From Gammaproteobacteria bacterium (GTDB lineage: Bacteria; Pseudomonadota; Gammaproteobacteria; UBA4575), in the NCBI GenBank assembly GCA_965243395.1, contig CBDEUS010000002.1, positions 1-64,000 of the forward strand: DNA of 64,000 nt, read 5' to 3'. The stretch's first letter is position 1; the number at the start of each line of letters is the position of its first letter. Of this stretch, positions 1-18,600 are shown in pieces. The position numbers were made by a program, and so were the translations under genes. A model generated the notes under the pieces. It was not told the DNA's origin, made no database searches, and saw nothing but the letters and a program-made list of their open reading frames with translations.

Positions 1-3000
1 GGAACGTTGTTGTTCGGCGTACTGTCCGGATCGGCTTGGTCACTGGCACTGACTTGCGCGATGTTGTCATACGGTCCACTCGCGTTCACCGTCGCGGTGA
101 TCACTAAAGTCTCACTCGCCGCATTCGCTAACGCGCCCACCGTCCACACGCCGGTGCCACTGTTATACGTTCCAACACTTGGTGTATCACTCACATAGGT
201 GTAACCCGCCGGTAACTGATCCAACACCGCCACATTGGTCGCACCACTGGGACCGTTGTTGGTCACGGTGACCGTGAAGTTCACGTTCGCACCCACACTC
301 GGCGTCGCGTTGTCCACCACCTTCGTTAAACTTAAGTCCGCACTCGCCACCGGTGTGGTCAGTGCATTGTCTTGATCATCTTCTGCAGGAACGTTGTTGT
401 TCGGCGTACTGTCCGGATCGGCTTGGTCACTGGCACTGACTTGCGCGATGTTGTCATACGGTCCACTCGCGTTCACCGTCGCGGTGATCACTAAAGTCTC
501 ACTCGCCGCATTCGCTAACGCGCCCACCGTCCACACGCCGGTGCCACTGTTATACGTTCCAACACTTGGTGTATCACTCACATAGGTGTAACCCGCCGGT
601 AACTGATCCAACACCGCCACATTGGTCGCACCACTGGGACCGTTGTTGGTCACGGTGACCGTGAAGTTCACGTTCGCACCCACACTCGGCGTCGCGTTGT
701 CCACCACCTTCGTTAAACTTAAGTCCGCACTCGCCACCGGTGTGGTCAGTGCATTGTCTTGATCATCTTCTGCAGGAACGTTGTTGTTCGGCGTACTGTC
801 CGGATCGGCTTGGTCACTGGCACTGACTTGCGCGATGTTGTCATACGGTCCACTCGCGTTCACCGTCGCGGTGATCACTAAAGTCTCACTCGCCGCATTC
901 GCTAACGCGCCCACCGTCCACACGCCGGTGCCACTGTTATACGTTCCAACACTTGGTGTATCACTCACATAGGTGTAACCCGCCGGTAACTGATCCAACA
1001 CCGCCACATTGGTCGCACCACTGGGACCGTTGTTGGTCACGGTGACCGTGAAGTTCACGTTCGCACCCACACTCGGCGTCGCGTTGTCCACCACCTTCGT
1101 TAAACTTAAGTCCGCACTCGCCACCGGTGTGGTCAGTGCATTGTCTTGATCATCTTCTGCAGGAACGTTGTTGTTCGGCGTACTGTCCGGATCGGCTTGG
1201 TCACTGGCACTGACTTGCGCGATGTTGTCATACGGTCCACTCGCGTTCACCGTCGCGGTGATCACTAAAGTCTCACTCGCCGCATTCGCTAACGCGCCCA
1301 CCGTCCACACGCCGGTGCCACTGTTATACGTTCCAACACTTGGTGTATCACTCACATAGGTGTAACCCGCCGGTAACTGATCCAACACCGCCACATTGGT
1401 CGCACCACTGGGACCGTTGTTGGTCACGGTGACCGTGAAGTTCACGTTCGCACCCACACTCGGCGTCGCGTTGTCCACCACCTTCGTTAAACTTAAGTCC
1501 GCACTCGCCACCGGTGTGGTCAGTGCATTGTCTTGATCATCTTCTGCAGGAACGTTGTTGTTCGGCGTACTGTCCGGATCGGCTTGGTCACTGGCACTGA
1601 CTTGCGCGATGTTGTCATACGGTCCACTCGCGTTCACCGTCGCGGTGATCACTAAAGTCTCACTCGCCGCATTCGCTAACGCGCCCACCGTCCACACGCC
1701 GGTGCCACTGTTATACGTTCCAACACTTGGTGTATCACTCACATAGGTGTAACCCGCCGGTAACTGATCCAACACCGCCACATTGGTCGCACCACTGGGA
1801 CCGTTGTTGGTCACGGTGACCGTGAAGTTCACGTTCGCACCCACACTCGGCGTCGCGTTGTCCACCACCTTCGTTAAACTTAAGTCCGCACTCGCCACCG
1901 GTGTGGTCAGTGCATTGTCTTGATCATCTTCTGCAGGAACGTTGTTGTTCGGCGTACTGTCCGGATCGGCTTGGTCACTGGCACTGACTTGCGCGATGTT
2001 GTCATACGGTCCACTCGCGTTCACCGTCGCGGTGATCACTAAAGTCTCACTCGCCGCATTCGCTAACGCGCCCACCGTCCACACGCCGGTGCCACTGTTA
2101 TACGTTCCAACACTTGGTGTATCACTCACATAGGTGTAACCCGCCGGTAACTGATCCAACACCGCCACATTGGTCGCACCACTGGGACCGTTGTTGGTCA
2201 CGGTGACCGTGAAGTTCACGTTCGCACCCACACTCGGCGTCGCGTTGTCCACCACCTTCGTTAAACTTAAGTCCGCACTCGCCACCGGTGTGGTCAGTGC
2301 ATTGTCTTGATCATCTTCTGCAGGAACGTTGTTGTTCGGCGTACTGTCCGGATCGGCTTGGTCACTGGCACTGACTTGCGCGATGTTGTCATACGGTCCA
2401 CTCGCGTTCACCGTCGCGGTGATCACTAAAGTCTCACTCGCCGCATTCGCTAACGCGCCCACCGTCCACACGCCGGTGCCACTGTTATACGTTCCAACAC
2501 TTGGTGTATCACTCACATAGGTGTAACCCGCCGGTAACTGATCCAACACCGCCACATTGGTCGCACCACTGGGACCGTTGTTGGTCACGGTGACCGTGAA
2601 GTTCACGTTCGCACCCACACTCGGCGTCGCGTTGTCCACCACCTTCGTTAAACTTAAGTCCGCACTCGCCACCGGTGTGGTCAGTGCATTGTCTTGATCA
2701 TCTTCTGCAGGAACGTTGTTGTTCGGCGTACTGTCCGGATCGGCTTGGTCACTGGCACTGACTTGCGCGATGTTGTCATACGGTCCACTCGCGTTCACCG
2801 TCGCGGTGATCACTAAAGTCTCACTCGCCGCATTCGCTAACGCGCCCACCGTCCACACGCCGGTGCCACTGTTATACGTTCCAACACTTGGTGTATCACT
2901 CACATAGGTGTAACCCGCCGGTAACTGATCCAACACCGCCACATTGGTCGCACCACTGGGACCGTTGTTGGTCACGGTGACCGTGAAGTTCACGTTCGCA

Positions 3001-6000
3001 CCCACACTCGGCGTCGCGTTGTCCACCACCTTCGTTAAACTTAAGTCCGCACTCGCCACCGGTGTGGTCAGTGCATTGTCTTGATCATCTTCTGCAGGAA
3101 CGTTGTTGTTCGGCGTACTGTCCGGATCGGCTTGGTCACTGGCACTGACTTGCGCGATGTTGTCATACGGTCCACTCGCGTTCACCGTCGCGGTGATCAC
3201 TAAAGTCTCACTCGCCGCATTCGCTAACGCGCCCACCGTCCACACGCCGGTGCCACTGTTATACGTTCCAACACTTGGTGTATCACTCACATAGGTGTAA
3301 CCCGCCGGTAACTGATCCAACACCGCCACATTGGTCGCACCACTGGGACCGTTGTTGGTCACGGTGACCGTGAAGTTCACGTTCGCACCCACACTCGGCG
3401 TCGCGTTGTCCACCACCTTCGTTAAACTTAAGTCCGCACTCGCCACCGGTGTGGTCAGTGCATTGTCTTGATCATCTTCTGCAGGAACGTTGTTGTTCGG
3501 CGTACTGTCCGGATCGGCTTGGTCACTGGCACTGACTTGCGCGATGTTGTCATACGGTCCACTCGCGTTCACCGTCGCGGTGATCACTAAAGTCTCACTC
3601 GCCGCATTCGCTAACGCGCCCACCGTCCACACGCCGGTGCCACTGTTATACGTTCCAACACTTGGTGTATCACTCACATAGGTGTAACCCGCCGGTAACT
3701 GATCCAACACCGCCACATTGGTCGCACCACTGGGACCGTTGTTGGTCACGGTGACCGTGAAGTTCACGTTCGCACCCACACTCGGCGTCGCGTTGTCCAC
3801 CACCTTCGTTAAACTTAAGTCCGCACTCGCCACCGGTGTGGTCAGTGCATTGTCTTGATCATCTTCTGCAGGAACGTTGTTGTTCGGCGTACTGTCCGGA
3901 TCGGCTTGGTCACTGGCACTGACTTGCGCGATGTTGTCATACGGTCCACTCGCGTTCACCGTCGCGGTGATCACTAAAGTCTCACTCGCCGCATTCGCTA
4001 ACGCGCCCACCGTCCACACGCCGGTGCCACTGTTATACGTTCCAACACTTGGTGTATCACTCACATAGGTGTAACCCGCCGGTAACTGATCCAACACCGC
4101 CACATTGGTCGCACCACTGGGACCGTTGTTGGTCACGGTGACCGTGAAGTTCACGTTCGCACCCACACTCGGCGTCGCGTTGTCCACCACCTTCGTTAAA
4201 CTTAAGTCCGCACTCGCCACCGGTGTGGTCAGTGCATTGTCTTGATCATCTTCTGCAGGAACGTTGTTGTTCGGCGTACTGTCCGGATCGGCTTGGTCAC
4301 TGGCACTGACTTGCGCGATGTTGTCATACGGTCCACTCGCGTTCACCGTCGCGGTGATCACTAAAGTCTCACTCGCCGCATTCGCTAACGCGCCCACCGT
4401 CCACACGCCGGTGCCACTGTTATACGTTCCAACACTTGGTGTATCACTCACATAGGTGTAACCCGCCGGTAACTGATCCAACACCGCCACATTGGTCGCA
4501 CCACTGGGACCGTTGTTGGTCACGGTGACCGTGAAGTTCACGTTCGCACCCACACTCGGCGTCGCGTTGTCCACCACCTTCGTTAAACTTAAGTCCGCAC
4601 TCGCCACCGGTGTGGTCAGTGCATTGTCTTGATCATCTTCTGCAGGAACGTTGTTGTTCGGCGTACTGTCCGGATCGGCTTGGTCACTGGCACTGACTTG
4701 CGCGATGTTGTCATACGGTCCACTCGCGTTCACCGTCGCGGTGATCACTAAAGTCTCACTCGCCGCATTCGCTAACGCGCCCACCGTCCACACGCCGGTG
4801 CCACTGTTATACGTTCCAACACTTGGTGTATCACTCACATAGGTGTAACCCGCCGGTAACTGATCCAACACCGCCACATTGGTCGCACCACTGGGACCGT
4901 TGTTGGTCACGGTGACCGTGAAGTTCACGTTCGCACCCACACTCGGCGTCGCGTTGTCCACCACCTTCGTTAAACTTAAGTCCGCACTCGCCACCGGTGT
5001 GGTCAGTGCATTGTCTTGATCATCTTCTGCAGGAACGTTGTTGTTCGGCGTACTGTCCGGATCGGCTTGGTCACTGGCACTGACTTGCGCGATGTTGTCA
5101 TACGGTCCACTCGCGTTCACCGTCGCGGTGATCACTAAAGTCTCACTCGCCGCATTCGCTAACGCGCCCACCGTCCACACGCCGGTGCCACTGTTATACG
5201 TTCCAACACTTGGTGTATCACTCACATAGGTGTAACCCGCCGGTAACTGATCCAACACCGCCACATTGGTCGCACCACTGGGACCGTTGTTGGTCACGGT
5301 GACCGTGAAGTTCACGTTCGCACCCACACTCGGCGTCGCGTTGTCCACCACCTTCGTTAAACTTAAGTCCGCACTCGCCACCGGTGTGGTCAGTGCATTG
5401 TCTTGATCATCTTCTGCAGGAACGTTGTTGTTCGGCGTACTGTCCGGATCGGCTTGGTCACTGGCACTGACTTGCGCGATGTTGTCATACGGTCCACTCG
5501 CGTTCACCGTCGCGGTGATCACTAAAGTCTCACTCGCCGCATTCGCTAACGCGCCCACCGTCCACACGCCGGTGCCACTGTTATACGTTCCAACACTTGG
5601 TGTATCACTCACATAGGTGTAACCCGCCGGTAACTGATCCAACACCGCCACATTGGTCGCACCACTGGGACCGTTGTTGGTCACGGTGACCGTGAAGTTC
5701 ACGTTCGCACCCACACTCGGCGTCGCGTTGTCCACCACCTTCGTTAAACTTAAGTCCGCACTCGCCACCGGTGTGGTCAGTGCATTGTCTTGATCATCTT
5801 CTGCAGGAACGTTGTTGTTCGGCGTACTGTCCGGATCGGCTTGGTCACTGGCACTGACTTGCGCGATGTTGTCATACGGTCCACTCGCGTTCACCGTCGC
5901 GGTGATCACTAAAGTCTCACTCGCCGCATTCGCTAACGCGCCCACCGTCCACACGCCGGTGCCACTGTTATACGTTCCAACACTTGGTGTATCACTCACA

Positions 6001-9000
6001 TAGGTGTAACCCGCCGGTAACTGATCCAACACCGCCACATTGGTCGCACCACTGGGACCGTTGTTGGTCACGGTGACCGTGAAGTTCACGTTCGCACCCA
6101 CACTCGGCGTCGCGTTGTCCACCACCTTCGTTAAACTTAAGTCCGCACTCGCCACCGGTGTGGTCAGTGCATTGTCTTGATCATCTTCTGCAGGAACGTT
6201 GTTGTTCGGCGTACTGTCCGGATCGGCTTGGTCACTGGCACTGACTTGCGCGATGTTGTCATACGGTCCACTCGCGTTCACCGTCGCGGTGATCACTAAA
6301 GTCTCACTCGCCGCATTCGCTAACGCGCCCACCGTCCACACGCCGGTGCCACTGTTATACGTTCCAACACTTGGTGTATCACTCACATAGGTGTAACCCG
6401 CCGGTAACTGATCCAACACCGCCACATTGGTCGCACCACTGGGACCGTTGTTGGTCACGGTGACCGTGAAGTTCACGTTCGCACCCACACTCGGCGTCGC
6501 GTTGTCCACCACCTTCGTTAAACTTAAGTCCGCACTCGCCACCGGTGTGGTCAGTGCATTGTCTTGATCATCTTCTGCAGGAACGTTGTTGTTCGGCGTA
6601 CTGTCCGGATCGGCTTGGTCACTGGCACTGACTTGCGCGATGTTGTCATACGGTCCACTCGCGTTCACCGTCGCGGTGATCACTAAAGTCTCACTCGCCG
6701 CATTCGCTAACGCGCCCACCGTCCACACGCCGGTGCCACTGTTATACGTTCCAACACTTGGTGTATCACTCACATAGGTGTAACCCGCCGGTAACTGATC
6801 CAACACCGCCACATTGGTCGCACCACTGGGACCGTTGTTGGTCACGGTGACCGTGAAGTTCACGTTCGCACCCACACTCGGCGTCGCGTTGTCCACCACC
6901 TTCGTTAAACTTAAGTCCGCACTCGCCACCGGTGTGGTCAGTGCATTGTCTTGATCATCTTCTGCAGGAACGTTGTTGTTCGGCGTACTGTCCGGATCGG
7001 CTTGGTCACTGGCACTGACTTGCGCGATGTTGTCATACGGTCCACTCGCGTTCACCGTCGCGGTGATCACTAAAGTCTCACTCGCCGCATTCGCTAACGC
7101 GCCCACCGTCCACACGCCGGTGCCACTGTTATACGTTCCAACACTTGGTGTATCACTCACATAGGTGTAACCCGCCGGTAACTGATCCAACACCGCCACA
7201 TTGGTCGCACCACTGGGACCGTTGTTGGTCACGGTGACCGTGAAGTTCACGTTCGCACCCACACTCGGCGTCGCGTTGTCCACCACCTTCGTTAAACTTA
7301 AGTCCGCACTCGCCACCGGTGTGGTCAGTGCATTGTCTTGATCATCTTCTGCAGGAACGTTGTTGTTCGGCGTACTGTCCGGATCGGCTTGGTCACTGGC
7401 ACTGACTTGCGCGATGTTGTCATACGGTCCACTCGCGTTCACCGTCGCGGTGATCACTAAAGTCTCACTCGCCGCATTCGCTAACGCGCCCACCGTCCAC
7501 ACGCCGGTGCCACTGTTATACGTTCCAACACTTGGTGTATCACTCACATAGGTGTAACCCGCCGGTAACTGATCCAACACCGCCACATTGGTCGCACCAC
7601 TGGGACCGTTGTTGGTCACGGTGACCGTGAAGTTCACGTTCGCACCCACACTCGGCGTCGCGTTGTCCACCACCTTCGTTAAACTTAAGTCCGCACTCGC
7701 CACCGGTGTGGTCAGTGCATTGTCTTGATCATCTTCTGCAGGAACGTTGTTGTTCGGCGTACTGTCCGGATCGGCTTGGTCACTGGCACTGACTTGCGCG
7801 ATGTTGTCATACGGTCCACTCGCGTTCACCGTCGCGGTGATCACTAAAGTCTCACTCGCCGCATTCGCTAACGCGCCCACCGTCCACACGCCGGTGCCAC
7901 TGTTATACGTTCCAACACTTGGTGTATCACTCACATAGGTGTAACCCGCCGGTAACTGATCCAACACCGCCACATTGGTCGCACCACTGGGACCGTTGTT
8001 GGTCACGGTGACCGTGAAGTTCACGTTCGCACCCACACTCGGCGTCGCGTTGTCCACCACCTTCGTTAAACTTAAGTCCGCACTCGCCACCGGTGTGGTC
8101 AGTGCATTGTCTTGATCATCTTCTGCAGGAACGTTGTTGTTCGGCGTACTGTCCGGATCGGCTTGGTCACTGGCACTGACTTGCGCGATGTTGTCATACG
8201 GTCCACTCGCGTTCACCGTCGCGGTGATCACTAAAGTCTCACTCGCCGCATTCGCTAACGCGCCCACCGTCCACACGCCGGTGCCACTGTTATACGTTCC
8301 AACACTTGGTGTATCACTCACATAGGTGTAACCCGCCGGTAACTGATCCAACACCGCCACATTGGTCGCACCACTGGGACCGTTGTTGGTCACGGTGACC
8401 GTGAAGTTCACGTTCGCACCCACACTCGGCGTCGCGTTGTCCACCACCTTCGTTAAACTTAAGTCCGCACTCGCCACCGGTGTGGTCAGTGCATTGTCTT
8501 GATCATCTTCTGCAGGAACGTTGTTGTTCGGCGTACTGTCCGGATCGGCTTGGTCACTGGCACTGACTTGCGCGATGTTGTCATACGGTCCACTCGCGTT
8601 CACCGTCGCGGTGATCACTAAAGTCTCACTCGCCGCATTCGCTAACGCGCCCACCGTCCACACGCCGGTGCCACTGTTATACGTTCCAACACTTGGTGTA
8701 TCACTCACATAGGTGTAACCCGCCGGTAACTGATCCAACACCGCCACATTGGTCGCACCACTGGGACCGTTGTTGGTCACGGTGACCGTGAAGTTCACGT
8801 TCGCACCCACACTCGGCGTCGCGTTGTCCACCACCTTCGTTAAACTTAAGTCCGCACTCGCCACCGGTGTGGTCAGTGCATTGTCTTGATCATCTTCTGC
8901 AGGAACGTTGTTGTTCGGCGTACTGTCCGGATCGGCTTGGTCACTGGCACTGACTTGCGCGATGTTGTCATACGGTCCACTCGCGTTCACCGTCGCGGTG

Positions 9001-10404
9001 ATCACTAAAGTCTCACTCGCCGCATTCGCTAACGCGCCCACCGTCCACACGCCGGTGCCACTGTTATACGTTCCAACACTTGGTGTATCACTCACATAGG
9101 TGTAACCCGCCGGTAACTGATCCAACACCGCCACATTGGTCGCACCACTGGGACCGTTGTTGGTCACGGTGACCGTGAAGTTCACGTTCGCACCCACACT
9201 CGGCGTCGCGTTGTCCACCACCTTCGTTAAACTTAAGTCCGCACTCGCCACCGGTGTGGTCAGTGCATTGTCTTGATCATCTTCTGCAGGAACGTTGTTG
9301 TTCGGCGTACTGTCCGGATCGGCTTGGTCACTGGCACTGACTTGCGCGATGTTGTCATACGGTCCACTCGCGTTCACCGTCGCGGTGATCACTAAAGTCT
9401 CACTCGCCGCATTCGCTAACGCGCCCACCGTCCACACGCCGGTGCCACTGTTATACGTTCCAACACTTGGTGTATCACTCACATAGGTGTAACCCGCCGG
9501 TAACTGATCCAACACCGCCACATTGGTCGCACCACTGGGACCGTTGTTGGTCACGGTGACCGTGAAGTTCACGTTCGCACCCACACTCGGCGTCGCGTTG
9601 TCCACCACCTTCGTTAAACTTAAGTCCGCACTCGCCACCGGTGTGGTCAGTGCATTGTCTTGATCATCTTCTGCAGGAACGTTGTTGTTCGGCGTACTGT
9701 CCGGATCGGCTTGGTCACTGGCACTGACTTGCGCGATGTTGTCATACGGTCCACTCGCGTTCACCGTCGCGGTGATCACTAAAGTCTCACTCGCCGCATT
9801 CGCTAACGCGCCCACCGTCCACACGCCGGTGCCACTGTTATACGTTCCAACACTTGGTGTATCACTCACATAGGTGTAACCCGCCGGTAACTGATCCAAC
9901 ACCGCCACATTGGTCGCACCACTGGGACCGTTGTTGGTCACGGTGACCGTGAAGTTCACGTTCGCACCCACACTCGGCGTCGCGTTGTCCACCACCTTCG
10001 TTAAACTTAAGTCCGCACTCGCCACCGGTGTGGTCAGTGCATTGTCTTGATCATCTTCTGCAGGAACGTTGTTGTTCGGCGTACTGTCCGGATCGGCTTG
10101 GTCACTGGCACTGACTTGCGCGATGTTGTCATACGGTCCACTCGCGTTCACCGTCGCGGTGATCACTAAAGTCTCACTCGCCGCATTCGCTAACGCGCCC
10201 ACCGTCCACACGCCGGTGCCACTGTTATACGTTCCAACACTTGGTGTATCACTCACATAGGTGTAACCCGCCGGTAACTGATCCAACACCGCCACATTGG
10301 TCGCACCACTGGGACCGTTGTTGGTCACGGTGACCGTGAAGTTCACGTTCGCACCCACACTCGGCGTCGCGTTGTCCACCACCTTCGTTAAACTTAAGTC
10401 CGCA
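1..10404. repeat. Tandem array of 387-bp units, about 26.9 copies, continuing off the left edge
   Basis: The unit ggaacgttgttgttcggc...tcatcttctgca recurs every 387 nt, and identical shadow ORFs start at 7, 394, ... 10069. I saw no variant by eye. Identity breaks after ...aagtccgca at 10404. Unit GC counted at 219/387 (about 57%). Confidence 0.98.
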
Positions 10405-10628
10405 TTTGCTAATAGTGTGTTGCTATCTGATGCGGTATTGTTAGCTGGGGTTGGGTCACTGATTCCAGCGGGCGCGGTGACGGTGGCTGTGTTGACTAAA
10501 GGATTTGGAAATACAGCGGACGCTTGAAAGGAAAAAATGTACAGAAATATGAAAACAAAATAATTACGAAAACGTAAAAATTTACGATGTTCCCAACTCG
10601 ATTGTCGTTCCCTGATGAGAATTGACAC
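1..10628 (-). CDS. Giant secreted repetitive adhesin-like protein with tandem DUF11-type Ig-like domains (3'-partial, >3,540 aa)
   Basis: Manual translation gives a GTG start at 10628 after AAGGA and a signal peptide MSILIRERQSSWEHRKFLRFRNYFVFIFLYIFSFQASA|. The stop-free 129-aa repeat is ADLSLTKVVDNATPSVGANVNFTVTVTNNGPSGATNVAVLDQLPAGYTYVSDTPSVGTYNSGTGVWTVGALANAASETLVITATVNASGPYDNIAQVSASDQADPDSTPNNNVPAEDDQDNALTTPVAS, with DUF11 hallmarks ADLSLTK, N-x-GPS-x-A and DxLPAG. No stop codon lies inside the window. Confidence 0.93.
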   Translation of the reverse strand, partial: MSILIRERQSSWEHRKFLRFRNYFVFIFLYIFSFQASAVFPNPLVNTATVTAPAGISDPTPANNTASDSNTLLANADLSLTKVVDNATPSVGANVNFTVTVTNNGPSGATNVAVLDQLPAGYTYVSDTPSVGTYNSGTGVWTVGALANAASETLVITATVNASGPYDNIAQVSASDQADPDSTPNNNVPAEDDQDNALTTPVASADLSLTKVVDNATPSVGANVNFTVTVTNNGPSGATNVAVLDQLPAGYTYVSDTPSVGTYNSGTGVWTVGALANAASETLVITATVNASGPYDNIAQVSASDQADPDSTPNNNVPAEDDQDNALTTPVASADLSLTKVVDNATPSVGANVNFTVTVTNNGPSGATNVAVLDQLPAGYTYVSDTPSVGTYNSGTGVWTVGALANAASETLVITATVNASGPYDNIAQVSASDQADPDSTPNNNVPAEDDQDNALTTPVASADLSLTKVVDNATPSVGANVNFTVTVTNNGPSGATNVAVLDQLPAGYTYVSDTPSVGTYNSGTGVWTVGALANAASETLVITATVNASGPYDNIAQVSASDQADPDSTPNNNVPAEDDQDNALTTPVASADLSLTKVVDNATPSVGANVNFTVTVTNNGPSGATNVAVLDQLPAGYTYVSDTPSVGTYNSGTGVWTVGALANAASETLVITATVNASGPYDNIAQVSASDQADPDSTPNNNVPAEDDQDNALTTPVASADLSLTKVVDNATPSVGANVNFTVTVTNNGPSGATNVAVLDQLPAGYTYVSDTPSVGTYNSGTGVWTVGALANAASETLVITATVNASGPYDNIAQVSASDQADPDSTPNNNVPAEDDQDNALTTPVASADLSLTKVVDNATPSVGANVNFTVTVTNNGPSGATNVAVLDQLPAGYTYVSDTPSVGTYNSGTGVWTVGALANAASETLVITATVNASGPYDNIAQVSASDQADPDSTPNNNVPAEDDQDNALTTPVASADLSLTKVVDNATPSVGANVNFTVTVTNNGPSGATNVAVLDQLPAGYTYVSDTPSVGTYNSGTGVWTVGALANAASETLVITATVNASGPYDNIAQVSASDQADPDSTPNNNVPAEDDQDNALTTPVASADLSLTKVVDNATPSVGANVNFTVTVTNNGPSGATNVAVLDQLPAGYTYVSDTPSVGTYNSGTGVWTVGALANAASETLVITATVNASGPYDNIAQVSASDQADPDSTPNNNVPAEDDQDNALTTPVASADLSLTKVVDNATPSVGANVNFTVTVTNNGPSGATNVAVLDQLPAGYTYVSDTPSVGTYNSGTGVWTVGALANAASETLVITATVNASGPYDNIAQVSASDQADPDSTPNNNVPAEDDQDNALTTPVASADLSLTKVVDNATPSVGANVNFTVTVTNNGPSGATNVAVLDQLPAGYTYVSDTPSVGTYNSGTGVWTVGALANAASETLVITATVNASGPYDNIAQVSASDQADPDSTPNNNVPAEDDQDNALTTPVASADLSLTKVVDNATPSVGANVNFTVTVTNNGPSGATNVAVLDQLPAGYTYVSDTPSVGTYNSGTGVWTVGALANAASETLVITATVNASGPYDNIAQVSASDQADPDSTPNNNVPAEDDQDNALTTPVASADLSLTKVVDNATPSVGANVNFTVTVTNNGPSGATNVAVLDQLPAGYTYVSDTPSVGTYNSGTGVWTVGALANAASETLVITATVNASGPYDNIAQVSASDQADPDSTPNNNVPAEDDQDNALTTPVASADLSLTKVVDNATPSVGANVNFTVTVTNNGPSGATNVAVLDQLPAGYTYVSDTPSVGTYNSGTGVWTVGALANAASETLVITATVNASGPYDNIAQVSASDQADPDSTPNNNVPAEDDQDNALTTPVASADLSLTKVVDNATPSVGANVNFTVTVTNNGPSGATNVAVLDQLPAGYTYVSDTPSVGTYNSGTGVWTVGALANAASETLVITATVNASGPYDNIAQVSASDQADPDSTPNNNVPAEDDQDNALTTPVASADLSLTKVVDNATPSVGANVNFTVTVTNNGPSGATNVAVLDQLPAGYTYVSDTPSVGTYNSGTGVWTVGALANAASETLVITATVNASGPYDNIAQVSASDQADPDSTPNNNVPAEDDQDNALTTPVASADLSLTKVVDNATPSVGANVNFTVTVTNNGPSGATNVAVLDQLPAGYTYVSDTPSVGTYNSGTGVWTVGALANAASETLVITATVNASGPYDNIAQVSASDQADPDSTPNNNVPAEDDQDNALTTPVASADLSLTKVVDNATPSVGANVNFTVTVTNNGPSGATNVAVLDQLPAGYTYVSDTPSVGTYNSGTGVWTVGALANAASETLVITATVNASGPYDNIAQVSASDQADPDSTPNNNVPAEDDQDNALTTPVASADLSLTKVVDNATPSVGANVNFTVTVTNNGPSGATNVAVLDQLPAGYTYVSDTPSVGTYNSGTGVWTVGALANAASETLVITATVNASGPYDNIAQVSASDQADPDSTPNNNVPAEDDQDNALTTPVASADLSLTKVVDNATPSVGANVNFTVTVTNNGPSGATNVAVLDQLPAGYTYVSDTPSVGTYNSGTGVWTVGALANAASETLVITATVNASGPYDNIAQVSASDQADPDSTPNNNVPAEDDQDNALTTPVASADLSLTKVVDNATPSVGANVNFTVTVTNNGPSGATNVAVLDQLPAGYTYVSDTPSVGTYNSGTGVWTVGALANAASETLVITATVNASGPYDNIAQVSASDQADPDSTPNNNVPAEDDQDNALTTPVASADLSLTKVVDNATPSVGANVNFTVTVTNNGPSGATNVAVLDQLPAGYTYVSDTPSVGTYNSGTGVWTVGALANAASETLVITATVNASGPYDNIAQVSASDQADPDSTPNNNVPAEDDQDNALTTPVASADLSLTKVVDNATPSVGANVNFTVTVTNNGPSGATNVAVLDQLPAGYTYVSDTPSVGTYNSGTGVWTVGALANAASETLVITATVNASGPYDNIAQVSASDQADPDSTPNNNVPAEDDQDNALTTPVASADLSLTKVVDNATPSVGANVNFTVTVTNNGPSGATNVAVLDQLPAGYTYVSDTPSVGTYNSGTGVWTVGALANAASETLVITATVNASGPYDNIAQVSASDQADPDSTPNNNVPAEDDQDNALTTPVASADLSLTKVVDNATPSVGANVNFTVTVTNNGPSGATNVAVLDQLPAGYTYVSDTPSVGTYNSGTGVWTVGALANAASETLVITATVNASGPYDNIAQVSASDQADPDSTPNNNVPAEDDQDNALTTPVASADLSLTKVVDNATPSVGANVNFTVTVTNNGPSGATNVAVLDQLPAGYTYVSDTPSVGTYNSGTGVWTVGALANAASETLVITATVNASGPYDNIAQVSASDQADPDSTPNNNVPAEDDQDNALTTPVASADLSLTKVVDNATPSVGANVNFTVTVTNNGPSGATNVAVLDQLPAGYTYVSDTPSVGTYNSGTGVWTVGALANAASETLVITATVNASGPYDNIAQVSASDQADPDSTPNNNV

Positions 10629-10674
10629 TCGTTATTCCTTCAACGCGTTCCATAACCCCAAACTTGCCCGTCAA

Positions 10675-10697
10675 CGATTTAGAAAAAATCTAAATCG
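10675..10697. promoter_or_regulatory. Perfect 9-bp inverted repeat upstream of the adhesin start (operator or UTR hairpin)
   Basis: cgatttaga-aaaaa-tctaaatcg, 47 nt upstream of the GTG. Confidence 0.35.
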
Positions 10698-11080
10698 CCA
10701 CCCAAAAAATATTGAGCAAATTAAGTCGATTTGAGGCATTTGCGATCACGCAAAAAACTAGAGCGATCGCTGTAAATAATTGACTTTACAAAGAAATTCC
10801 TAACTTCTTTGATAAAGCCAATAATACGACTACAGCGTCAAATTTTAGACGGTACAGGTCTCAGAACTAAGGATTTACAGGCAAAAACCCGATTTAAGAT
10901 AAAGTTTTAGCGATGAAAGGTGTTAAGAAAAAGTTTATTGTGAATGACGATAAGCTGTTGATTTTTATAGATAAAAGGGGAATTTTTTTAACATTAATTC
11001 ACACCTCAGTAGCTGTTAAATATTTCTCATATTTTTCAGTGAGTTATGAAAATAAAACCAAAGTTACGGGTGGTTGTAGG

Positions 11081-11635
11081 CTATTTCCATTTGATATTGC
11101 ACCCAACACTTGGCTTCTGTTGAGTATTGATCTGTACACCCGCAATAATTGAAGCAAGTGCATTACGTAAATCCTCTCCGGTAACGGGAATGTTATTACC
11201 GGGACGAGAGTCATCCAGTTGACCTCGATACACGCATTCCAAATTTTTGTCGAAGACATAAAAGTCTGGGGTGCATGCTGCATCAAATAATTTTGCCACT
11301 TCTTGAGTCTCATCATATAAATATGGAAACTCATAACCCAATGACTCTGCGAGTTGTTTCATTTTATCCGGCGAATCTTCAGGATAGTTTTCAATATCAT
11401 TTGAACTAATGGCAATCAAATTTATTCCTTTAGATGGATACTCTCGGCCAAGCTTGACCAACTCATTTTGGATGTGTTTTACAAAAGGACAATGGTTACA
11501 AATAAACATTATTAGCGTTGCAAGATTTCCTTTTAGATCTTCTAAACTTTTTTGTTGACCAGAAACGGTATCTAAAAGACAGAAATCAGGGGCCTTTGTG
11601 CCTAGTGGCATCATGTTTGAAGGAGTTTGTACCAT
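11081..11635 (-). CDS. Thioredoxin-fold AhpC/TSA (redoxin) family protein
   Basis: APDF-x-L, FICNHCPFV (CxxC), ACTPDF, YRGQLDDSRP and SVGCNIKWK motifs. Confidence 0.9.
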   Translation of the reverse strand: MVQTPSNMMPLGTKAPDFCLLDTVSGQQKSLEDLKGNLATLIMFICNHCPFVKHIQNELVKLGREYPSKGINLIAISSNDIENYPEDSPDKMKQLAESLGYEFPYLYDETQEVAKLFDAACTPDFYVFDKNLECVYRGQLDDSRPGNNIPVTGEDLRNALASIIAGVQINTQQKPSVGCNIKWK

Positions 11636-11782
11636 AACGCAATCTATTTAATTTATGAGAATTAGCATTAATTAGTAGAATATTGAGCCTTATATTACCC
11701 ATATAACTAATGAGTTAAATAAATAATTTATCTCTGTAATAAACTACGCCTCAAAAATAAGTCCATTTTAAGGAACATACTA

Positions 11783-12940
11783 ATGCCAGTAACACGTGTA
11801 TTCACTTCAGAGTCAGTATCTGAAGGTCACCCAGATAAAATGTCTGACCAGATATCAGACGCAATTCTTGATGCCATTTTAAATCAAGATTCTAATGCAC
11901 GTGTAGCATGTGAAACCATGGTTAAAACCGGCATGGTCGTACTTGCCGGTGAGATTACGACTACTGCTCAAATTGAATATGAAAATATTGTCCGAGATAC
12001 GGTAAACAGTATTGGTTACGATAATTCCGATGTCGGATTTGATGGTCATAACTGTGCAGTATTGAATGCGTTAGGAAAACAGTCTCCGGATATTGCTCAA
12101 GGAGTAGACAGAAAATCCAAAGAAGAACAGGGTGCTGGAGATCAAGGCATGATGTTTGGTTATGCCAGTAATGAAACAGATGTATTAATGCCTGCACCCA
12201 TCACTTATTCACACCGTTTAGTACAAAAACAGTCTGAAGTCAGAAAAGCTGGAATACTAAGCTGGTTACGCCCAGATGCAAAAAGTCAAATTACATTCGT
12301 GTACGAAGACGGAAAACCAACAAGTATTAATGCAGTAGTGTTGTCTACACAACATGATCCAGACATAAGCCAAAGCGATCTACAAGAAGCCGTGATGGAG
12401 CACATTATTAAACCAACACTTCCAACAAAATGGTTGTCCAATGACACAAAGTACCATATCAATCCAACGGGTAAATTTGAAATTGGCGGCCCTGTAGGTG
12501 ATTGTGGATTAACAGGAAGAAAAATTATTGTTGATACCTATGGCGGAATGGCGCGACATGGAGGCGGCGCGTTTTCAGGCAAAGACCCTTCCAAAGTAGA
12601 TCGTTCTGCTGCGTATGCTGGGCGCTATGTGGCTAAAAATATAGTTGCAGCGGGTTTAGCCGAGCGATGTGAAATACAAATTTCCTATGCTATTGGTGTG
12701 GCTCAGCCTACCTCGGTATCAATTGATACATTTGGAACGGGTAAAATCGCCGATAGTAAAATTGAAGATATAGTACAAGACGTATTTGACTTACGCCCTT
12801 ATGGTATTGTCACCATGCTGGACTTGTTACAACCAATTTATCAAGCTACTGCAGCTTATGGCCATTTTGGTCGTGATGAAGATGGTTTTCCATGGGAAAA
12901 TACTGACAAGGTTTCTGAGTTAAAAGATCGTGTATCTTAA
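11783..12940 (+). CDS. metK: S-adenosylmethionine synthetase
   Basis: [35 protein letters not shown]. Confidence 0.99.
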
Positions 12941-12988
12941 TAATTTTTAGTTGCTTATATTTTTAGTGCTTAAGGAGCATTCGCACAT

Positions 12989-14302
12989 ATGACTACGCAA
13001 ACTGCCGAAAAACTTGAACCAGATTTTAAAATAGCTGACATCAATCTAGCTGATTGGGGTCGCAAAGAAATTGCCATCGCAGAAACAGAAATGCCTGGCT
13101 TAATGGCACTGCGAGAAAAATATGGAAAAGAAAAACCACTTGCAGGTGCACGTATTGCGGGCTGCTTGCATATGACTATACAAACTGCTGTTTTGATTGA
13201 AACACTCGTTGACCTTGGTGCTGATATTCGCTGGTCTTCTTGTAATATTTTTTCAACTCAAGATCACGCTGCTGCGGCTATTGCAGCAAATGGTATTCCA
13301 GTTTTTGCCTGGAAAGGTGAAACAGAAGAGGAATATGACTGGTGTATAGAGCAAACCATTTCGGGACCCAATGGCTGGACACCCAATATGATTCTAGATG
13401 ATGGCGGTGACCTGACTAAAGTCATGCATGAAAAATATCCTGAACTATTAAAAGAAGTAAAAGGTCTTTCTGAAGAAACCACAACTGGTGTTCACCGTTT
13501 ACATGAAATGGAAAAATCAGGTGAACTTAAAGTTCCAGCATTCAATGTAAATGATTCAGTAACTAAATCTAAGTTTGATAATTTGTATGGATGTCGAGAA
13601 TCATTAGTAGATGGCATTAAACGTGCCACCGATGTCATGATAGCTGGCAAAACTGCTGTGGTGTGTGGCTATGGAGATGTTGGTAAGGGAAGTGCACAAT
13701 CATTACGTGGTTTAGGCGCTACAGTTGTTATTACTGAAATTGATCCTATCTGTGCTCTACAAGCTGCTATGGAAGGTTACAGCGTAGTAACAATTGAAGA
13801 TGTGGTCGATAAAGCAGATATCTTTGTTACTACAACAGGTAACCTTAATGTAATCACTCATGGACACATGCTTGCTATGAAAGATCAAGCAATCGTTTGC
13901 AATATTGGACACTTTGATAATGAAATTGATATAAGTAGTTTAAAACAATATCAATGGGAAAATATTAAACCCCAAGTAGATCATGTTATTTTTCCAGACG
14001 GCAAACGCATCATAATTTTAGCTGAAGGTCGTCTAGTCAATTTAGGTTGTGCAACAGGACACCCTAGTTTTGTAATGTCTAATTCTTTTAGCAACCAAGT
14101 GCTTGCACAAATGGAACTTTGGACTAATGCAAATAAGTATGAAAATAAAGTTTATGTTTTGCCGAAAGAACTAGATGAGGAAGTTGCTCGTTTACATTTA
14201 GAAAAAATTGGTGTGAAACTTACCAAGCTAAGTAAAGAACAAGCAGATTATATAGGTGTTGAAATCGACGGTCCTTATAAACCTGATTATTACCGTTACT
14301 AA
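12989..14302 (+). CDS. ahcY: S-adenosylhomocysteine hydrolase
   Basis: [48 protein letters not shown]. Confidence 0.99.
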
Positions 14303-14341
14303 TTCGCACGAACATGATTTGTTACTCGCTTTGAACGATCG

Positions 14342-15082
14342 ATGCGAGTCATTCGTCTATTCACATCTAATCACCTCTTATCATCTAGTTCTGAACTTGA
14401 GCTAGATGAAAGAACACGTCATTACGCTTTAAACGTATTAAGACTAAACAAACATTCTAATTTAATAATATTTAACGGTGATGGTTTTGATTATGTTTGC
14501 GAGATTCTCGTTTGCAACAAATCAAACTTGCGAGTTAAAGTATCTGAAAAACGAACTTTAAACAACGAATCGCCTCTGAAGACTCATTTATATCTGGGCA
14601 TCTCAAAAAGCTCACATATGGATTTTGCTATTCAGAAATCTGTTGAAACAGGTGTAACCAGCATCCAGCCTGTAATGATGGAGCGCACAGTAAGCAAATC
14701 TAGCAATAAATCTTTAGCCAACAAACACCAGCATTGGAAACGTATTATTCAAAGCGCTTGTGAACAATGTGGCCGAGCGACAGTTCCTGAACTGCAAAAA
14801 TCAATAGAATTACATGATATTGAACCACTATTAGATAACGAACTTGGTTTGGTATTTGATTCGAATTCGAGCCAGAACATTCAAAGTTTAAAATTATGTG
14901 CGCCTAAAGTTATAAATCTTTTAATCGGACCTGAAGGTGGTTTATCAGAAAGAGAGATACAACAGGCATTGCAAAAGGGATTTCAAGCTGTTCATTGCGG
15001 TCCGAGAGTGTTACGCACGGAAACAGCAGCAGTTGCGGCCGTATTATTAGCCCAACGGGAATGGGGAGACCTCGCACAATAA
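14342..15082 (+). CDS. rsmE: 16S rRNA m3U1498 methyltransferase
   Basis: HxxxVLR, ACEQCGR, IGPEGG and RVLRTETA SPOUT motifs. Confidence 0.95.
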   Translation: MRVIRLFTSNHLLSSSSELELDERTRHYALNVLRLNKHSNLIIFNGDGFDYVCEILVCNKSNLRVKVSEKRTLNNESPLKTHLYLGISKSSHMDFAIQKSVETGVTSIQPVMMERTVSKSSNKSLANKHQHWKRIIQSACEQCGRATVPELQKSIELHDIEPLLDNELGLVFDSNSSQNIQSLKLCAPKVINLLIGPEGGLSEREIQQALQKGFQAVHCGPRVLRTETAAVAAVLLAQREWGDLAQ

Positions 15083-15190
15083 TAGAAACAACTAAGTTAA
15101 TTAGGTCTATACCATTACTCTTCTAGCAGGATAATAGAAAAATATGAGTGACTATGGCCTATACCATAGCCCCTCGCACACTAAACTTTA

Positions 15191-15667
15191 TCAGCTTGTG
15201 CGTGTTAAAAGAATTTCTTCTAATTTTTGAAAATTTGGAATAGCGAGTTCTTTGCTTCCAATTTTTACGTAGTATGAAATAAGCTCAGAGTGTTTACTCA
15301 TCATACCTTCGTGAGTATATAACGCTCGACTATCTAATATTAAGGGCCTTGGAATTGATTGCACTTCGATAGCATATAAAGGGAATGCTTCAGTATTTTC
15401 AATAACATGACATATCACTGCACGTATATGTTTTGATTTAGTAACTCTTGGTTGATTGCATATACGCTCAAATGAAACAACTGGAATTACGAAATCGTCC
15501 CATTCTATATCACCGATTAACCAATCATCTTCATCATCGTAAGTATTTACAGTAGGTTTATACACTACTTCTTTAACAATTGATTTTGGTAATAGCACAT
15601 CATTGCCACTCAAAGGTAACAACATACAACTCAGCGTAGGATAGGTTGTCGTTTCAGCTAATGACAT
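15191..15667 (-). CDS. chpC: CheW-like protein of the Pil-Chp system
   Basis: LLP..V.EVV and WLIGDIEW...IPVVSFE CheW motifs; directly after chpA. Confidence 0.8.
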   Translation of the reverse strand: MSLAETTTYPTLSCMLLPLSGNDVLLPKSIVKEVVYKPTVNTYDDEDDWLIGDIEWDDFVIPVVSFERICNQPRVTKSKHIRAVICHVIENTEAFPLYAIEVQSIPRPLILDSRALYTHEGMMSKHSELISYYVKIGSKELAIPNFQKLEEILLTRTS

Positions 15668-15672
15668 AAGAA

Positions 15673-18600
15673 TTAATTCACCACTTCCCTTACATAATCC
15701 AACAATTCACTTTCGTTATAAGGCTTACCCAAATACTTTTGTACTCCAATATCCATTGCTCGTTGACGATGTTTATCCCCTGTACGTGATGTAATCATAA
15801 TAATCGGCACATTTTTCAATCGATCATTATTTCTTACATGGTTTGCCAGTTCATAGCCATCCATACGTGGCATTTCGATATCCAATAAGATTAATGCCGG
15901 TGTAAAATCTTGTAGTTTTTGAACTGCATCGACACCATCTTTAGCAGTAGCCACTTTATAGTTATTACGTTCAAGAAAACGCGTCGTAACTTTACGGATC
16001 GTTATAGAATCATCGACCACCATTATGGTTGGTTGTGAATCAATTATTGTTTCATCATGACTAGGTTTAATCGTACGAGACTGATCCATTCCGTCCATTC
16101 GAATCAAACCCGGAACATCTAGAATTAATACTACATTGCCATCCCCTAAGATCGTTGCACCGGAAACTACCGGCAAACGACTTAACTGTACGGCTAAAGG
16201 CTTCACTACGATTTCATGGTTACCTAGTGTAGTTTCAACATGAATCGCCATACGAGAATCACCTGAACGCACTAGCAATACAGGAAACATTTTATCTGCG
16301 CCATCCAGTTGCGGTTGGTTTACACCCAATAAGCTACCTAAGTGACATAAACGGTAATTTCTATCTGCATAATGATAACTAGCATTCTCTTCTGCATATT
16401 TCTGTTTTAACTCATGAGCAGACAAACGCACTACACCTTCAACACTTACTAAAGGTATGGCATAAATTTCATTGGCACATTTGATTAATAAAGATTGTGT
16501 AATTGCTAAGGTAAATGGTATATGGATTGTGAAAATAGCCCCTTCACCCAATACTGAGTCAATTTGCAAAGAACCGCCAAGTTGTTTCAGTTCACTGGCT
16601 ACTACATCCATCCCCACACCACGTCCAGATACCTGCGAAACCTCTCCTGCTGTACTAAATCCTGGTGTTAAAATTAAATTCAGCGCTTCACGTTCAGATA
16701 TTTCTTCATCATCTAAAAAACCTAATTCTTTAGCTTTGTTTTTAATTTTTTCTACATTTAGCCCAGCGCCATCATCAGAAACTACAATTACAATTTCTGC
16801 GCCTTCGCGTTTGACTTCAATTTTAATTTCACCCTGCTTCGCTTTTTTAACATCTACTCTTTGTTCAGCTTCTTCAATTCCATGTGAGATTGCATTTCTA
16901 ACCAAATGCTCTAATGGTGCAATTATGCGATTAAGTATTGAGCTGTCTACTTCAGTATTTTGGCCAACTACTTTTAAATCAGCTTCTTTACTCAACTCAC
17001 GCGATGTTTGTCTAACAATTCGTTGTAAACGAGGAACCAGCTGATTAAATGGCACCATACGTGTACGCATTAGGCCTTCTTGTAAATCTCCACTAATTCG
17101 ACGCTGCTGTGAAAGCAATATTTCAGATTCACGCACTTGATCTGAAAGAATGTCTTTTATACTCAATAGGTCATTCACACTTTCTGCAAGCGATCTTGAA
17201 AGTTGCTGAATATTCGAATAGCGATCTAATTCAAGAGGGTCAAAGTCATCTTCTTCAGGCACTTCATGTGCATGTCTTGATAAAATTTGTGTTTCAGTTT
17301 CAATTTCTAAACTACGTAATTGCTCACGTAATCGATTTACAATTTGCTCAAGCTCATAAATGTTAACATTGTACGTATTGCTTACTTGCTCTAAACGCGC
17401 TTGAAAAATATTCACCTCGCCTGCATTGTTCACGAGATTATCTAATACACTAGATTGCAAACGTACTGATTGTTGAGAAACTATGGCCGGTGAAGAGCTG
17501 GTTTGTTCATTTGGGTCTACCGGGTTTCGTAAAACTGGAATCTTGACTACTTTATTTTCATCATCTTGAATTTTAGTCTTTTCTTTAGTTTTGCCTTGCA
17601 GCTTATCATTGGTTTCAGGTAGCTCAGATTTCCCTTCTGTTGGAAATGATTCACCCGTCCTTAAGGAATCTAATTCTGCAATTAAACCAGTGGCAGAAAA
17701 TACTGGTTGTTTATTAGCTGCAAGATCAATCATCTCATTTAAATGATCAAGACATCGCTGTACTAAATTAAATACTTCATCACTTGCATTAATACGTGAT
17801 TCTGCAATGTCGATGACTAAACTCTCAAAAATATGACTGAAGTCGCCAATATTGCTATAGGCAGCCATGCGTGCACTGCCTTTTAAAGTATGCAGCTGAC
17901 GACGGAATTCGGATACAGAGCTTTCATCTTTATGATTACTTCTCCACTTATCCAAACATTCATTACAGGTGACTAAAATATCGCTAGCTTCTTCTAAAAA
18001 GATTTCTACTAAATCAGCGTCTTTACCTTCATAAACATCTGCACTTTGAGACAACTCTGCAGCAGAAAGATTGGTGTCTGAGAGCGAAGCGATTTGAGTC
18101 TTTTCTAATTCATCCTCTGATTCATGTTTTGATTCTTCTTTTATGTCATCTTGTGCAATAACTTCGTCTAATTCTGCAATTTCATTACAATTTAAGTTTT
18201 TTACTTTTTCTAATAATTCACTGTTGACTGCAGATGTTTTCAATTCGCCGGGATTTTCTGTTATGCATTTTTTGACGTGCTCAATACAATCAACAAATAC
18301 TTCAAACTGTTCATTTTTTAATTTTTGTTTATTTTGATTTAGTTCTTGACAATATTTATCAAGCGGCCCTATTAATTTAGCAACTGCCTCAACTTTTGCT
18401 GTGCGTGAACAACCAAACAACGTATGCAATGCGTGCAATATTTTTTCATCAACTGGTAATATCTTGTGGGCTTTTTTAGGTTCAATTATTTCTTCTATGG
18501 CCTGGATATGCAGAATGGACTCTTCTAAAAACAAAGCATATAACTCATCTTCAAGATCATCTTGTACAACTGCTTGTTGTGAGCCTGATTCAGCTTCTTG

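Follow-up and report, generated by a model that had tools for sequence, protein, structure and literature searches.

A 37-residue amino-terminal piece of a giant gammaproteobacterial adhesin as the likely tag half of a naturally split CLIPPER (DUF11) domain

The question raised by the locus described here is why a very long, repeat-rich adhesin should begin, directly behind its signal peptide, with a short piece of a domain instead of a complete one. The stretch of DNA analysed (the window) covers the first 64 kb of contig C2 (G000:C2:1-64000; GenBank CBDEUS010000002.1) of a gammaproteobacterial genome of 2.58 Mb, which is made up of two contigs, C1 and C2, and the 5' part of the adhesin gene is found at the start of this stretch. 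The stalk of the adhesin is built of tandem DUF11 domains, a family that has been renamed CLIPPER in a study from 2025 (PMC12617251). According to that study, the crystal structure 9IFR (Acinetobacter silvestris B9T28_05395) has nine strands in a CnaA-like sandwich, in which Lys715 and Asn806, beside Asp748, are joined by an intramolecular isopeptide bond, and this bond gives resistance to heat and protease. The 37 residues in question resemble the end of such a domain, and the answer that we consider likely is that they represent one half, the tag, of a CLIPPER isopeptide domain split in nature, the other half of which (the catcher) forms the carboxyl ends of two proteins encoded directly downstream, and that this tag/catcher pair fixes exchangeable tip proteins to the stalk, probably in a covalent manner.

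The limits of the piece can be read from the translation of the adhesin gene, in which the end of the signal peptide (...FLYIFSFQASA) is followed by VFPNPLVNTATVTAPAGISDPTPANNTASDSNTLLAN (37 residues from 111 nt) and then by the start of repeat 1 (ADLSLTK...), exactly as given in the preliminary description of this window. The signal peptide shows a basic n-region, a hydrophobic core and an A-x-A end, and the same layout is seen in 11 orthologous loci; the tag, which passes into repeat 1 without any linker, is the mature amino terminus of the adhesin. In comparisons with the Pfam family PF01345, a full stalk repeat matches positions 1-109 of 114 (E 1.4e-38, 132.2 bits, above the gathering score), while the 37-residue piece by itself matches positions 90-112 of 114 (E 0.011, 16.5 bits, the cut-off being 24.6), i.e. 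as a fragment and not as a complete domain. As the preliminary description had also noticed, the stalk repeats retain candidates for all three isopeptide residues, viz. K7, D41 and N93, the spacings of which (34 and 86 residues) are near to those of K715, D748 and N806 in 9IFR (33 and 91), and the piece carries the Asn strand only. The Asn of the VNTATV motif in the piece aligns with N93 of the stalk repeat, and thus the piece corresponds to strand b8, which bears the reactive Asn, the loop following it, and strand b9. The earlier view of it as an orphan carboxyl-terminal piece of a DUF11 domain is therefore correct, but it is not a half of the domain; it accounts for about the last quarter.

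It had been suggested that the 3' end of the adhesin gene and its neighbours be searched for a DUF11 domain that has the Lys and Asp residues but lacks the final strands, and two such genes are present directly downstream. The 387-bp repeat array, which reaches the start of C2, resumes at the start of contig C1 on the opposite strand, where the adhesin gene continues, its frame remaining open for 5036 further residues up to a stop at C1:15112. Both catcher genes lie outside the window, directly after this stop. The proteins encoded by them end in a DUF11 domain, in which the motifs ADL[SQ]ITK and D.LP provide the Lys and the Asp, respectively, and both chains stop at ...DVPVQFS[AS]NM[SG]DY, before the Asn strand. 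The two ends match PF01345 over positions 1-98 and 1-86 of 114 (1-96 and 1-83 in another scan), with scores of 57.3 and 46.1 bits that are above the cut-off. The catcher domain thus comprises strands b1-b7 only and, as the stop codon comes right after them, it is incomplete, with the Asn strand absent.

The specificity of both kinds of ends was examined in the 4604 stop-to-stop open reading frames (ORFs) of this genome. A tag profile trained on 23 N-terminal pieces from other genomes, with the window and its near twin L011 excluded, matched the N-terminus of the adhesin only (E 2.9e-17, 60.9 bits), the next best match being at E 4.1. No internal stalk repeat was matched by this profile, and due to this specificity for the adhesin N-terminus the tag forms a distinct family and is not to be regarded as a generic DUF11 end. 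When a profile of the unsplit domain was compared with the same ORFs, C-terminal partial domains were found only in the two catcher ORFs, and a scan with regular expressions agreed with this result. According to both types of searches, there are two catchers and a single tag in the genome. Another giant ORF, of 4467 aa (G000:C2:77532-90935), contains internal DUF11 matches that extend over model positions 1-85 up to 1-90 only; these partial domains are probably of a divergent CLIPPER subtype and not terminal catchers.

If the tag and the catcher are the two parts of one domain, then each of them should supply what the other is lacking, and this is the pattern that is observed. The profile of the unsplit domain consists of 133 positions; of 111 distinct units, 94 units belonging to 29 loci went into it, no locus contributing more than 4. 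The 24 catchers aligned with it extend without exception from position 1 to positions 99-102, and the 12 tags all begin at position 103, the tag in the window covering positions 103-130. Together the two chains give all strands of one isopeptide domain, with neither overlap nor gap. The cut lies in the loop between strands b7 and b8, where residues have been added on both sides, viz. ...DY at the carboxyl end of the catcher and [AV]FP or [SG]YP at the amino end of the tag. In the unsplit relatives, the motif found at the end of the catcher and that at the start of the tag are contiguous (...VPVAFASSMTT-DPLVNTATA...). The distinction between split and unsplit forms is also seen in a scan of contigs with the catcher alignment, in which 73 loci were obtained: 40 have a stop-terminated catcher ORF, and in the other 33 (from Burkholderiales, other betaproteobacteria, Tahibacter, NOR5-3 and others) the matches run beyond the catcher end, most of them being unsplit tandem repeats of the same CLIPPER subfamily. 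The stalk repeats of the adhesin match the unsplit profile at positions 1-65 only, and hence the tag belongs to the CLIPPER subfamily of the catchers, not to that of the stalk to which it is joined.

The isopeptide triad is divided between the two chains in the same manner, with the reactive Lys and the catalytic acid on the catcher and the reactive Asn on the tag. Each of the 56 distinct catcher ends has the Lys (profile position 5) as well as the Asp (position 39), and none of the 56 reaches positions 103-107. The Asn is found in every tag that was printed without a motif filter and is invariant among the 12 distinct tags, and in the unsplit units all three residues are kept in 94 of 94 cases. 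Because not all DUF11 domains keep these residues, as reported in the main text of PMC12617251, their invariance favours a real bond, and on the basis of this invariant triad we infer that an intermolecular Lys-Asn isopeptide bond probably forms between the tag and the catcher.

Comparison with other genomes provides information about the constancy of this arrangement. A signal peptide followed by the tag is present in 14 of 40 related genomes (in 11 of 14 genomes of the same genus and in one genome from each of three other genera of the family), so that homologues do share the piece in place of a full first domain, a point on which the preliminary description had asked for a check. The tags conform to the consensus [AVT]FP[DNS]PL.N[TI]ATV..P.G..DP...NN.A.D.N.L; when 12 distinct tags are compared, 15 columns are invariant, among them that of the Asn N8. 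The tag is conserved also in front of another type of repeat (SLAIVKTLDSNADED...), and its retention before different repeat types argues against a recent deletion scar. Stop-terminated catchers are present in 15 of the 40 genomes, viz. the 14 that carry the tag and G003, an assembly of 190 contigs; a tag without a catcher was seen in none of the 40, and in G009 and G034 the catcher query gave partial matches to ordinary domains only. With one exception, which ends in DYLP, the 26 distinct catcher ends finish in ...[VI]P[VI].[FY]S..[MP].DY followed by the stop. In several of the related genomes two or three catcher genes are found in tandem, and in genomes consisting of one contig the tag is followed, 7-20 kb further downstream and without a change of strand, by the catcher genes.

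Among the 40 loci with a stop-terminated catcher, 25 have a gene with a signal peptide and tag on the strand of the catcher (21 recognized by the regular expression, three by eye, viz. L080, L096 and L104, and in addition L088). The order of the genes is not the same in all of them. In Stenotrophomonas, Solilutibacter, Pseudoxanthomonas, Arenimonas and Luteimonas it is reversed: the catcher gene comes first and the giant tag gene directly after it, with 134-228 nt between the catcher stop and the tag motif. The system is widespread, and the range observed comprises a Thiotrichales-like gammaproteobacterial family, Lysobacterales including Stenotrophomonas, and one metagenome-assembled genome (MAG) labelled Rhodospirillaceae; a catcher without a nearby tag is found in a MAG of Kangiellaceae. 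Searches of protein collections contributed less. When 1.84 billion representatives were searched by HMMER, the catcher alignment serving as query, the best 150 of 39507 proteins at E <= 0.001 were all long multi-repeat CLIPPER proteins, a result that is uninformative. A word-based search with the 76-residue N-terminus, covering proteins of 134-2000 aa, a range beyond which the giant adhesins lie, gave 68 matches, mostly to internal b8-b9 segments; 8 had the motif in their first 90 residues, and a real signal peptide plus tag was present only in P0046 (Stenotrophomonas sp., 1410 aa) and P0050.

Two loci contain proteins with a tag and a catcher in the same chain, an arrangement that is not found in this genome. 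In L075 (a Luteimonas MAG, positions 6137-17290), three genes are found in a row, encoding a 731-aa protein ending in a catcher, a 661-aa ORF with a tag at its N-terminus and a catcher at its C-terminus, and a tag-bearing gene product, an order which, to judge from the sequences, implies an assembly of tip, adaptor and anchor. In L075 the frame of the tag-bearing gene is intact for 1128 aa and then broken; an ORF that overlaps it in a different frame ends in ...GWFLNFAGWY, like the barrel of the adhesin described here. The second locus, L088 (the MAG labelled Rhodospirillaceae, positions 1-903), encodes a chain of about 300 aa in which a signal peptide and a tag (FTSVTNTATV...) are combined with a catcher end (...IPVVFAATESGFL); its gene is followed by another tag-bearing gene. 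From its composition this chain could be a minimal self-linking subunit. The preliminary description had proposed that the piece completes an incomplete domain in trans, leading to head-to-tail polymerisation. Complementary partners have indeed been found, but for this genome the polymerisation does not follow, as the partners are two separate proteins of a tip type. Judged by its gene products, the present system is one of hetero-coupling, in which the tips are separate from the stalk, and the building of chains would be a matter of the proteins of L075 and L088. Two other loci show unusual features. In L014 (G006:C125, 1516-1983), the frame stops a few codons after the tag and only the last 53 residues of a catcher are found about 190 nt further on, as if the whole operon had undergone a large deletion or had been collapsed during assembly. 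A compact system is present in the one-contig genome G019 (L063/L020), with the tag at 2539, the barrel end ...GWFFDIVGKY at 9073 and the catcher gene directly next; the adhesin frame in this genome stops about 150 residues after the tag, due to either a pseudogene or a sequencing error.

Structure prediction was also applied to the two halves. From the catcher alignment alone, AlphaFold2 gave a model with a predicted local distance difference test value (pLDDT) of 92.0 and a predicted template modelling score (pTM) of 0.81. The best solved match of this model is 9IFR (Foldseek rank 1, E 1.2e-03, TM-score 0.65), and in a VIA-align comparison 97 residues of the two could be aligned with a Z-score of 9.2 and a root-mean-square deviation of 2.3 Å, the runner-up having a Z-score of 7.8; the range reported (model 7..112, chain 18..115) denotes the first and last residues, and the strands of 9IFR left unmatched cannot be read from it. 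Sequence searches of the PDB with the catcher, with the tag plus repeat and with the catcher profile gave nothing significant. The modelling of the peptide with the truncated domain, as proposed in the preliminary description, was carried out with the catcher alignment and the tag alignment (the tag as partner) and gave a complex score of 0.48, the best of three controls reaching 0.01, an outcome classed as 'weak support'. Three runs shared at least 99% of contacts, and the pLDDT of the tag was at least 68. In the calibration of this score, 116 of 157 solved complexes passed the mark, as did 2 of 215 mismatched pairs; the range up to 0.60, into which the value of 0.48 falls, holds only 18 of the 157 solved complexes and both of the passing mismatches.

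A number of observations weigh against the interpretation of a split domain, or limit what can be concluded from the evidence for it. The catcher alone is predicted to fold with confidence and shows no obvious need of completion. The complex score is a weak pass that comes without a list of contacts, so that the proximity of the Lys and the Asn cannot be read from it, and the halves of a split domain can pass through their likeness to intact solved domains such as 9IFR. An AlphaFold2 model of the tag together with repeat 1 shows the tag as two strands with a pLDDT of 68-85 (68, 85, 81 and 71 in successive blocks), again without contacts, and it is compatible with a 'cap' folded back on the adhesin itself. 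The tag taken by itself gives weak matches, viz. the E of 0.011 below the Pfam cut-off and an independent E-value of 0.24 with the unsplit profile in the genome-wide search. The count of the Asn in 25 of 25 tags is circular, since the regular expression used for collecting them demands this residue. Further, the related genomes are non-independent samples, and the counts obtained from them describe a pattern and provide no test of it. In 15 of the 40 catcher loci no tag is present in the stretch covered; 13 of these 15 have the gene order of this lineage with the adhesin upstream, in which the giant tag gene would fall beyond the locus, and the other two, L074 (Lysobacter) and L094 (Kangiellaceae), are without a tag within 10 kb. 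Lastly, the three-gene operon offers no evident means by which the tip proteins could be exported.

Of the other explanations that can be offered, the one nearest to the split isopeptide domain is donor-strand complementation alone, in which the two strands of the tag would fill the sandwich by non-covalent contacts, without an isopeptide bond, as happens in chaperone-usher pili. All of the evidence for the pairing fits this explanation equally well, and the main text of PMC12617251 mentions some DUF11 domains that are without the isopeptide residues. However, the family at large does not always keep these residues, whereas in the system described here they are constant (Lys and Asp in 56 of 56 catchers and the Asn in every tag seen); furthermore, engineered split isopeptide domains do react in trans, according to PMC5333627. 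We therefore regard a purely non-covalent union as unlikely. A different possibility is that the piece has no partner in trans at all, and that it is either a cap packing on the adhesin's own first domain or the remnant of a first domain that has been lost, the deletion scar that the preliminary description had given as its alternative. The placement of the tag by AlphaFold2, with intermediate confidence, as two strands beside repeat 1 is in accordance with a cap, and the array does end exactly at the boundary of the tag. However, the piece is kept in 14 of 40 relatives before different repeat types, as well as in Lysobacterales, and it is of the CLIPPER subfamily of the catcher and not that of the stalk; a scar, moreover, would not coincide with the exact part that is missing from the neighbouring genes in two different gene orders. 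Based on these considerations a cap or scar is very improbable.

One may also consider that an envelope machine recognizes the N-terminal motif and the C-terminal ...VPV.FS....Y motif as signals for sorting or export, and that the two are not partners of each other. Both motifs are indeed located at the chain termini of secreted proteins, the last residue of the catcher is aromatic, and the tips have no evident route of export. It would, however, be difficult to reconcile this explanation with the fact that in the unsplit relatives a single domain contains both motifs, one on either side of the same loop, and the operon contains no dedicated machine and is flanked by housekeeping genes. It is the least probable of the explanations considered here. 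The pairing of the tag with the catcher as parts of one split CLIPPER domain is supported by the comparison of sequences and of gene order, and weakly by the complex prediction.

If this split-domain interpretation is correct, then the events at the cell surface can be pictured as follows. The adhesin would be a very long CLIPPER stalk, held in the envelope by its C-terminus, with the tag at the far end of the fibre. The tag would insert as strands b8-b9 into the catcher and complete its beta-sandwich, upon which the Lys of the catcher, helped by the Asp of the same chain, would attack the Asn of the tag, with ammonia being released, in an autocatalytic reaction. In this manner, one of the two alternative tip proteins would become a covalent extension of the far end of the stalk without the participation of an assembly enzyme. 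Because the tag runs straight into repeat 1, the joint so formed would mimic an ordinary junction between two CLIPPER domains.

The coordinates of the genes and of the segments referred to above are collected in Table 1. The proposed topology, with the anchor at the C-terminus of the adhesin and the mature N-terminus at the far end of the fibre, is based on the likeness of this protein to the OmpA-anchored adhesin of PMC12617251. The part of the adhesin encoded on C1 contains 24 more repeat units, a DUF7933 domain, another DUF11 domain and an OmpA family domain, followed by some 1150-1160 residues. This last region of about 1160 aa (G000:C1:11630-15109), which ends in ...GWFFDITGKY, gave an OMP_b-brl match of 27.3 bits versus a cut-off of 28.7; no autotransporter family was found in it at E <= 0.01 and no Pfam family above its cut-off, and a sequence search of the PDB gave no significant relative. 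The C-terminal end is aromatic, as in an outer-membrane beta-signal. The anchor of the adhesin would consist of the OmpA-like domain and a probable outer-membrane barrel, and the last region may be a large barrel of an undescribed type that also serves in export. In regard to the stalk, Tandem Repeats Finder reports for the window a single array at positions 1-10404 with a period of 387 bp and 26.9 copies, with 100% matches and 0 indels. The identity of the repeats at the DNA level, which extends to the 24 units on C1, may reflect a very recent expansion or homogenisation, or a polishing of the assembly consensus. Both contigs end within this array (window 1-10404 and G000:C1:1-9350), inside which the assembly breaks; coming from the 5' end of the gene one meets about 27 repeats and from the 3' end 24, counts that describe the two contigs and not the whole array.

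Table 1. Positions of the adhesin gene, its segments and the two catcher genes. Coordinates refer to the window except where contig C1 is indicated.
Feature	Coordinates	Strand	Basis or remark
Adhesin ORF	3..10628	-	GTG start; 3' end open at contig start
Probable Shine-Dalgarno sequence GAAGGA, 7 nt upstream of GTG	10636..10641	-	Sequence reading
Sec-type signal peptide, 38 aa, GTG start, ending ...SFQASA	10515..10628	-	Sequence reading; cleavage site inferred
Tag, 37 aa, b8-loop-b9 of CLIPPER/DUF11; candidate isopeptide Asn N8 (in VNTATV)	10404..10514	-	PF01345, unsplit and tag profiles
First complete CLIPPER/DUF11 repeat, 129 aa, K7/D41/N93	10017..10403	-	PF01345 and triad spacing versus 9IFR
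Remaining stalk in the window: 387-bp repeats, DNA-identical, running off the contig start	3..10016	-	Tandem Repeats Finder
Catcher gene 1, 873 aa, signal peptide	C1:15124-17745	Adhesin strand	Starts 12 nt after preceding stop
Catcher gene 2, 588 aa, signal peptide	C1:17837-19603	Adhesin strand	Starts 92 nt after preceding stop

Upstream of the catcher end, the 873-aa protein contains three DUF7933 domains and the 588-aa protein a domain of the DUF7927/RrgB_K2N_iso_D2 type. In the N-terminal regions of these tip proteins no Pfam family was found at E <= 1 except for two rows at chance level, and the matches obtained for them in the ESM Atlas (an H-type lectin at 0.83, an unnamed cluster at 0.90 and CshA_NR2 at 0.78) are leads that support no functional claim. 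The unit of three genes is flanked by housekeeping genes on both sides, viz. those for a peroxiredoxin, metK, ahcY and an RNA methyltransferase on the side of the window, and tkt, gap, pgk, pyk and fba on the side of C1. Within the three-gene operon itself, there is no periplasmic chaperone gene, no separate usher gene and no dedicated envelope machine. The window also contains, on the minus strand, a gene for a 2004-aa hybrid kinase of the CheA type (15673-21687), which has three Hpt stretches, HATPase_c, a CheW-like domain and a receiver in a ChpA/PilL-like layout; adjoining it on the same strand is a CheW-like gene (15191-15667). These two genes have no relation to the tag and catcher.

The system proposed here shares features with several known means of joining the parts of surface fibres, and it is distinct from each of them. 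Donor-strand complementation and exchange are the basis of chaperone-usher and type V pili, where, as proposed for the present system, the next subunit donates an N-terminal strand to fill an incomplete Ig-like fold, a tip adhesin is placed on a stalk and an outer-membrane barrel is located at the base. However, such pili donate one strand, whereas in this case two strands would be donated, the operon lacks a chaperone or usher gene, the stalk is one giant polypeptide and a covalent lock is likely. SpyTag/SpyCatcher and SnoopTag/SnoopCatcher are engineered pairs derived from split Gram-positive isopeptide domains. A further engineered Tag/Catcher pair, derived from RrgA, is the 'Bio Molecular Welding' pair (PMC5333627). 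In these pairs, similar to what is suggested here, a short peptide with one reactive residue completes a truncated beta-sandwich that bears the other residue and the catalytic acid, from which a spontaneous isopeptide bond between the two chains would result; however, they are laboratory constructs, whereas the tag and the catchers are natural, conserved and encoded by neighbouring genes. Filaments of an 'exchange and lock' type are those of BsaA, a C. perfringens protein belonging to the TasA family (PMC11580942), and of the Sulfolobus thread, which has Saci_0406 as its subunit (PMC9715654). In these filaments an N-terminal strand is donated to the sheet of another chain, an intermolecular isopeptide bond is proposed and no sortase takes part, as is suggested for the present system; they differ from it in their folds and residues (the N-terminal amine being joined to an Asn in the thread) and in being homopolymers, whereas here the fold is a CnaA-like CLIPPER domain and the joint would be a heterotypic one between tip and stalk.

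Another close known system is the CLIPPER adhesin of PMC12617251 itself, for which the main text describes the same domain family, the Lys-Asp-Asn triad, a signal peptide, a stalk of tandem repeats and an OmpA-like anchor. In 9IFR, however, the domain is intact and the bond is within one chain, whereas in the present case two gene products each contain a part of the domain, the cut being at the b7-b8 loop. The words 'split', 'in trans', 'truncated' and 'strand complementation' do not occur in the main text of that paper, the supplements lying outside this check, and no natural split isopeptide domain was found in full-text literature searches, the scope of which excluded subscription journals and supplements. 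The principle of a donated strand combined with a spontaneous intermolecular isopeptide bond has already been proposed in other folds.

At the level of sequence and gene order the tag/catcher system is well supported. A wider generalization can also be considered, which we put forward as a tentative and rather doubtful one: Gram-negative bacteria may use a split CnaA-like isopeptide domain as a covalent click connector that needs neither enzyme nor chaperone. In such a scheme, a common stalk with one tag would capture interchangeable catcher tips at the end of the fibre, possibly outside the cell and possibly between neighbouring cells, and the two-ended proteins such as those of L075 and L088 would build whole fibres subunit by subunit. 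If this is true, then the many lineage-specific tag/catcher pairs would constitute a natural, and possibly orthogonal, set for protein ligation, and new tag/catcher pairs of Gram-negative origin would become available to protein engineers. If the bond forms, the system would be the natural counterpart of SpyTag/SpyCatcher and a third route, besides sortases and the strand exchange of chaperone-usher pili, for joining the parts of surface fibres. For the organism and its relatives, the tag/catcher interpretation, if correct, would account for how an adhesive tip is placed on a stalk that has no head of its own, and for how alternative tips can be carried by one and the same stalk.

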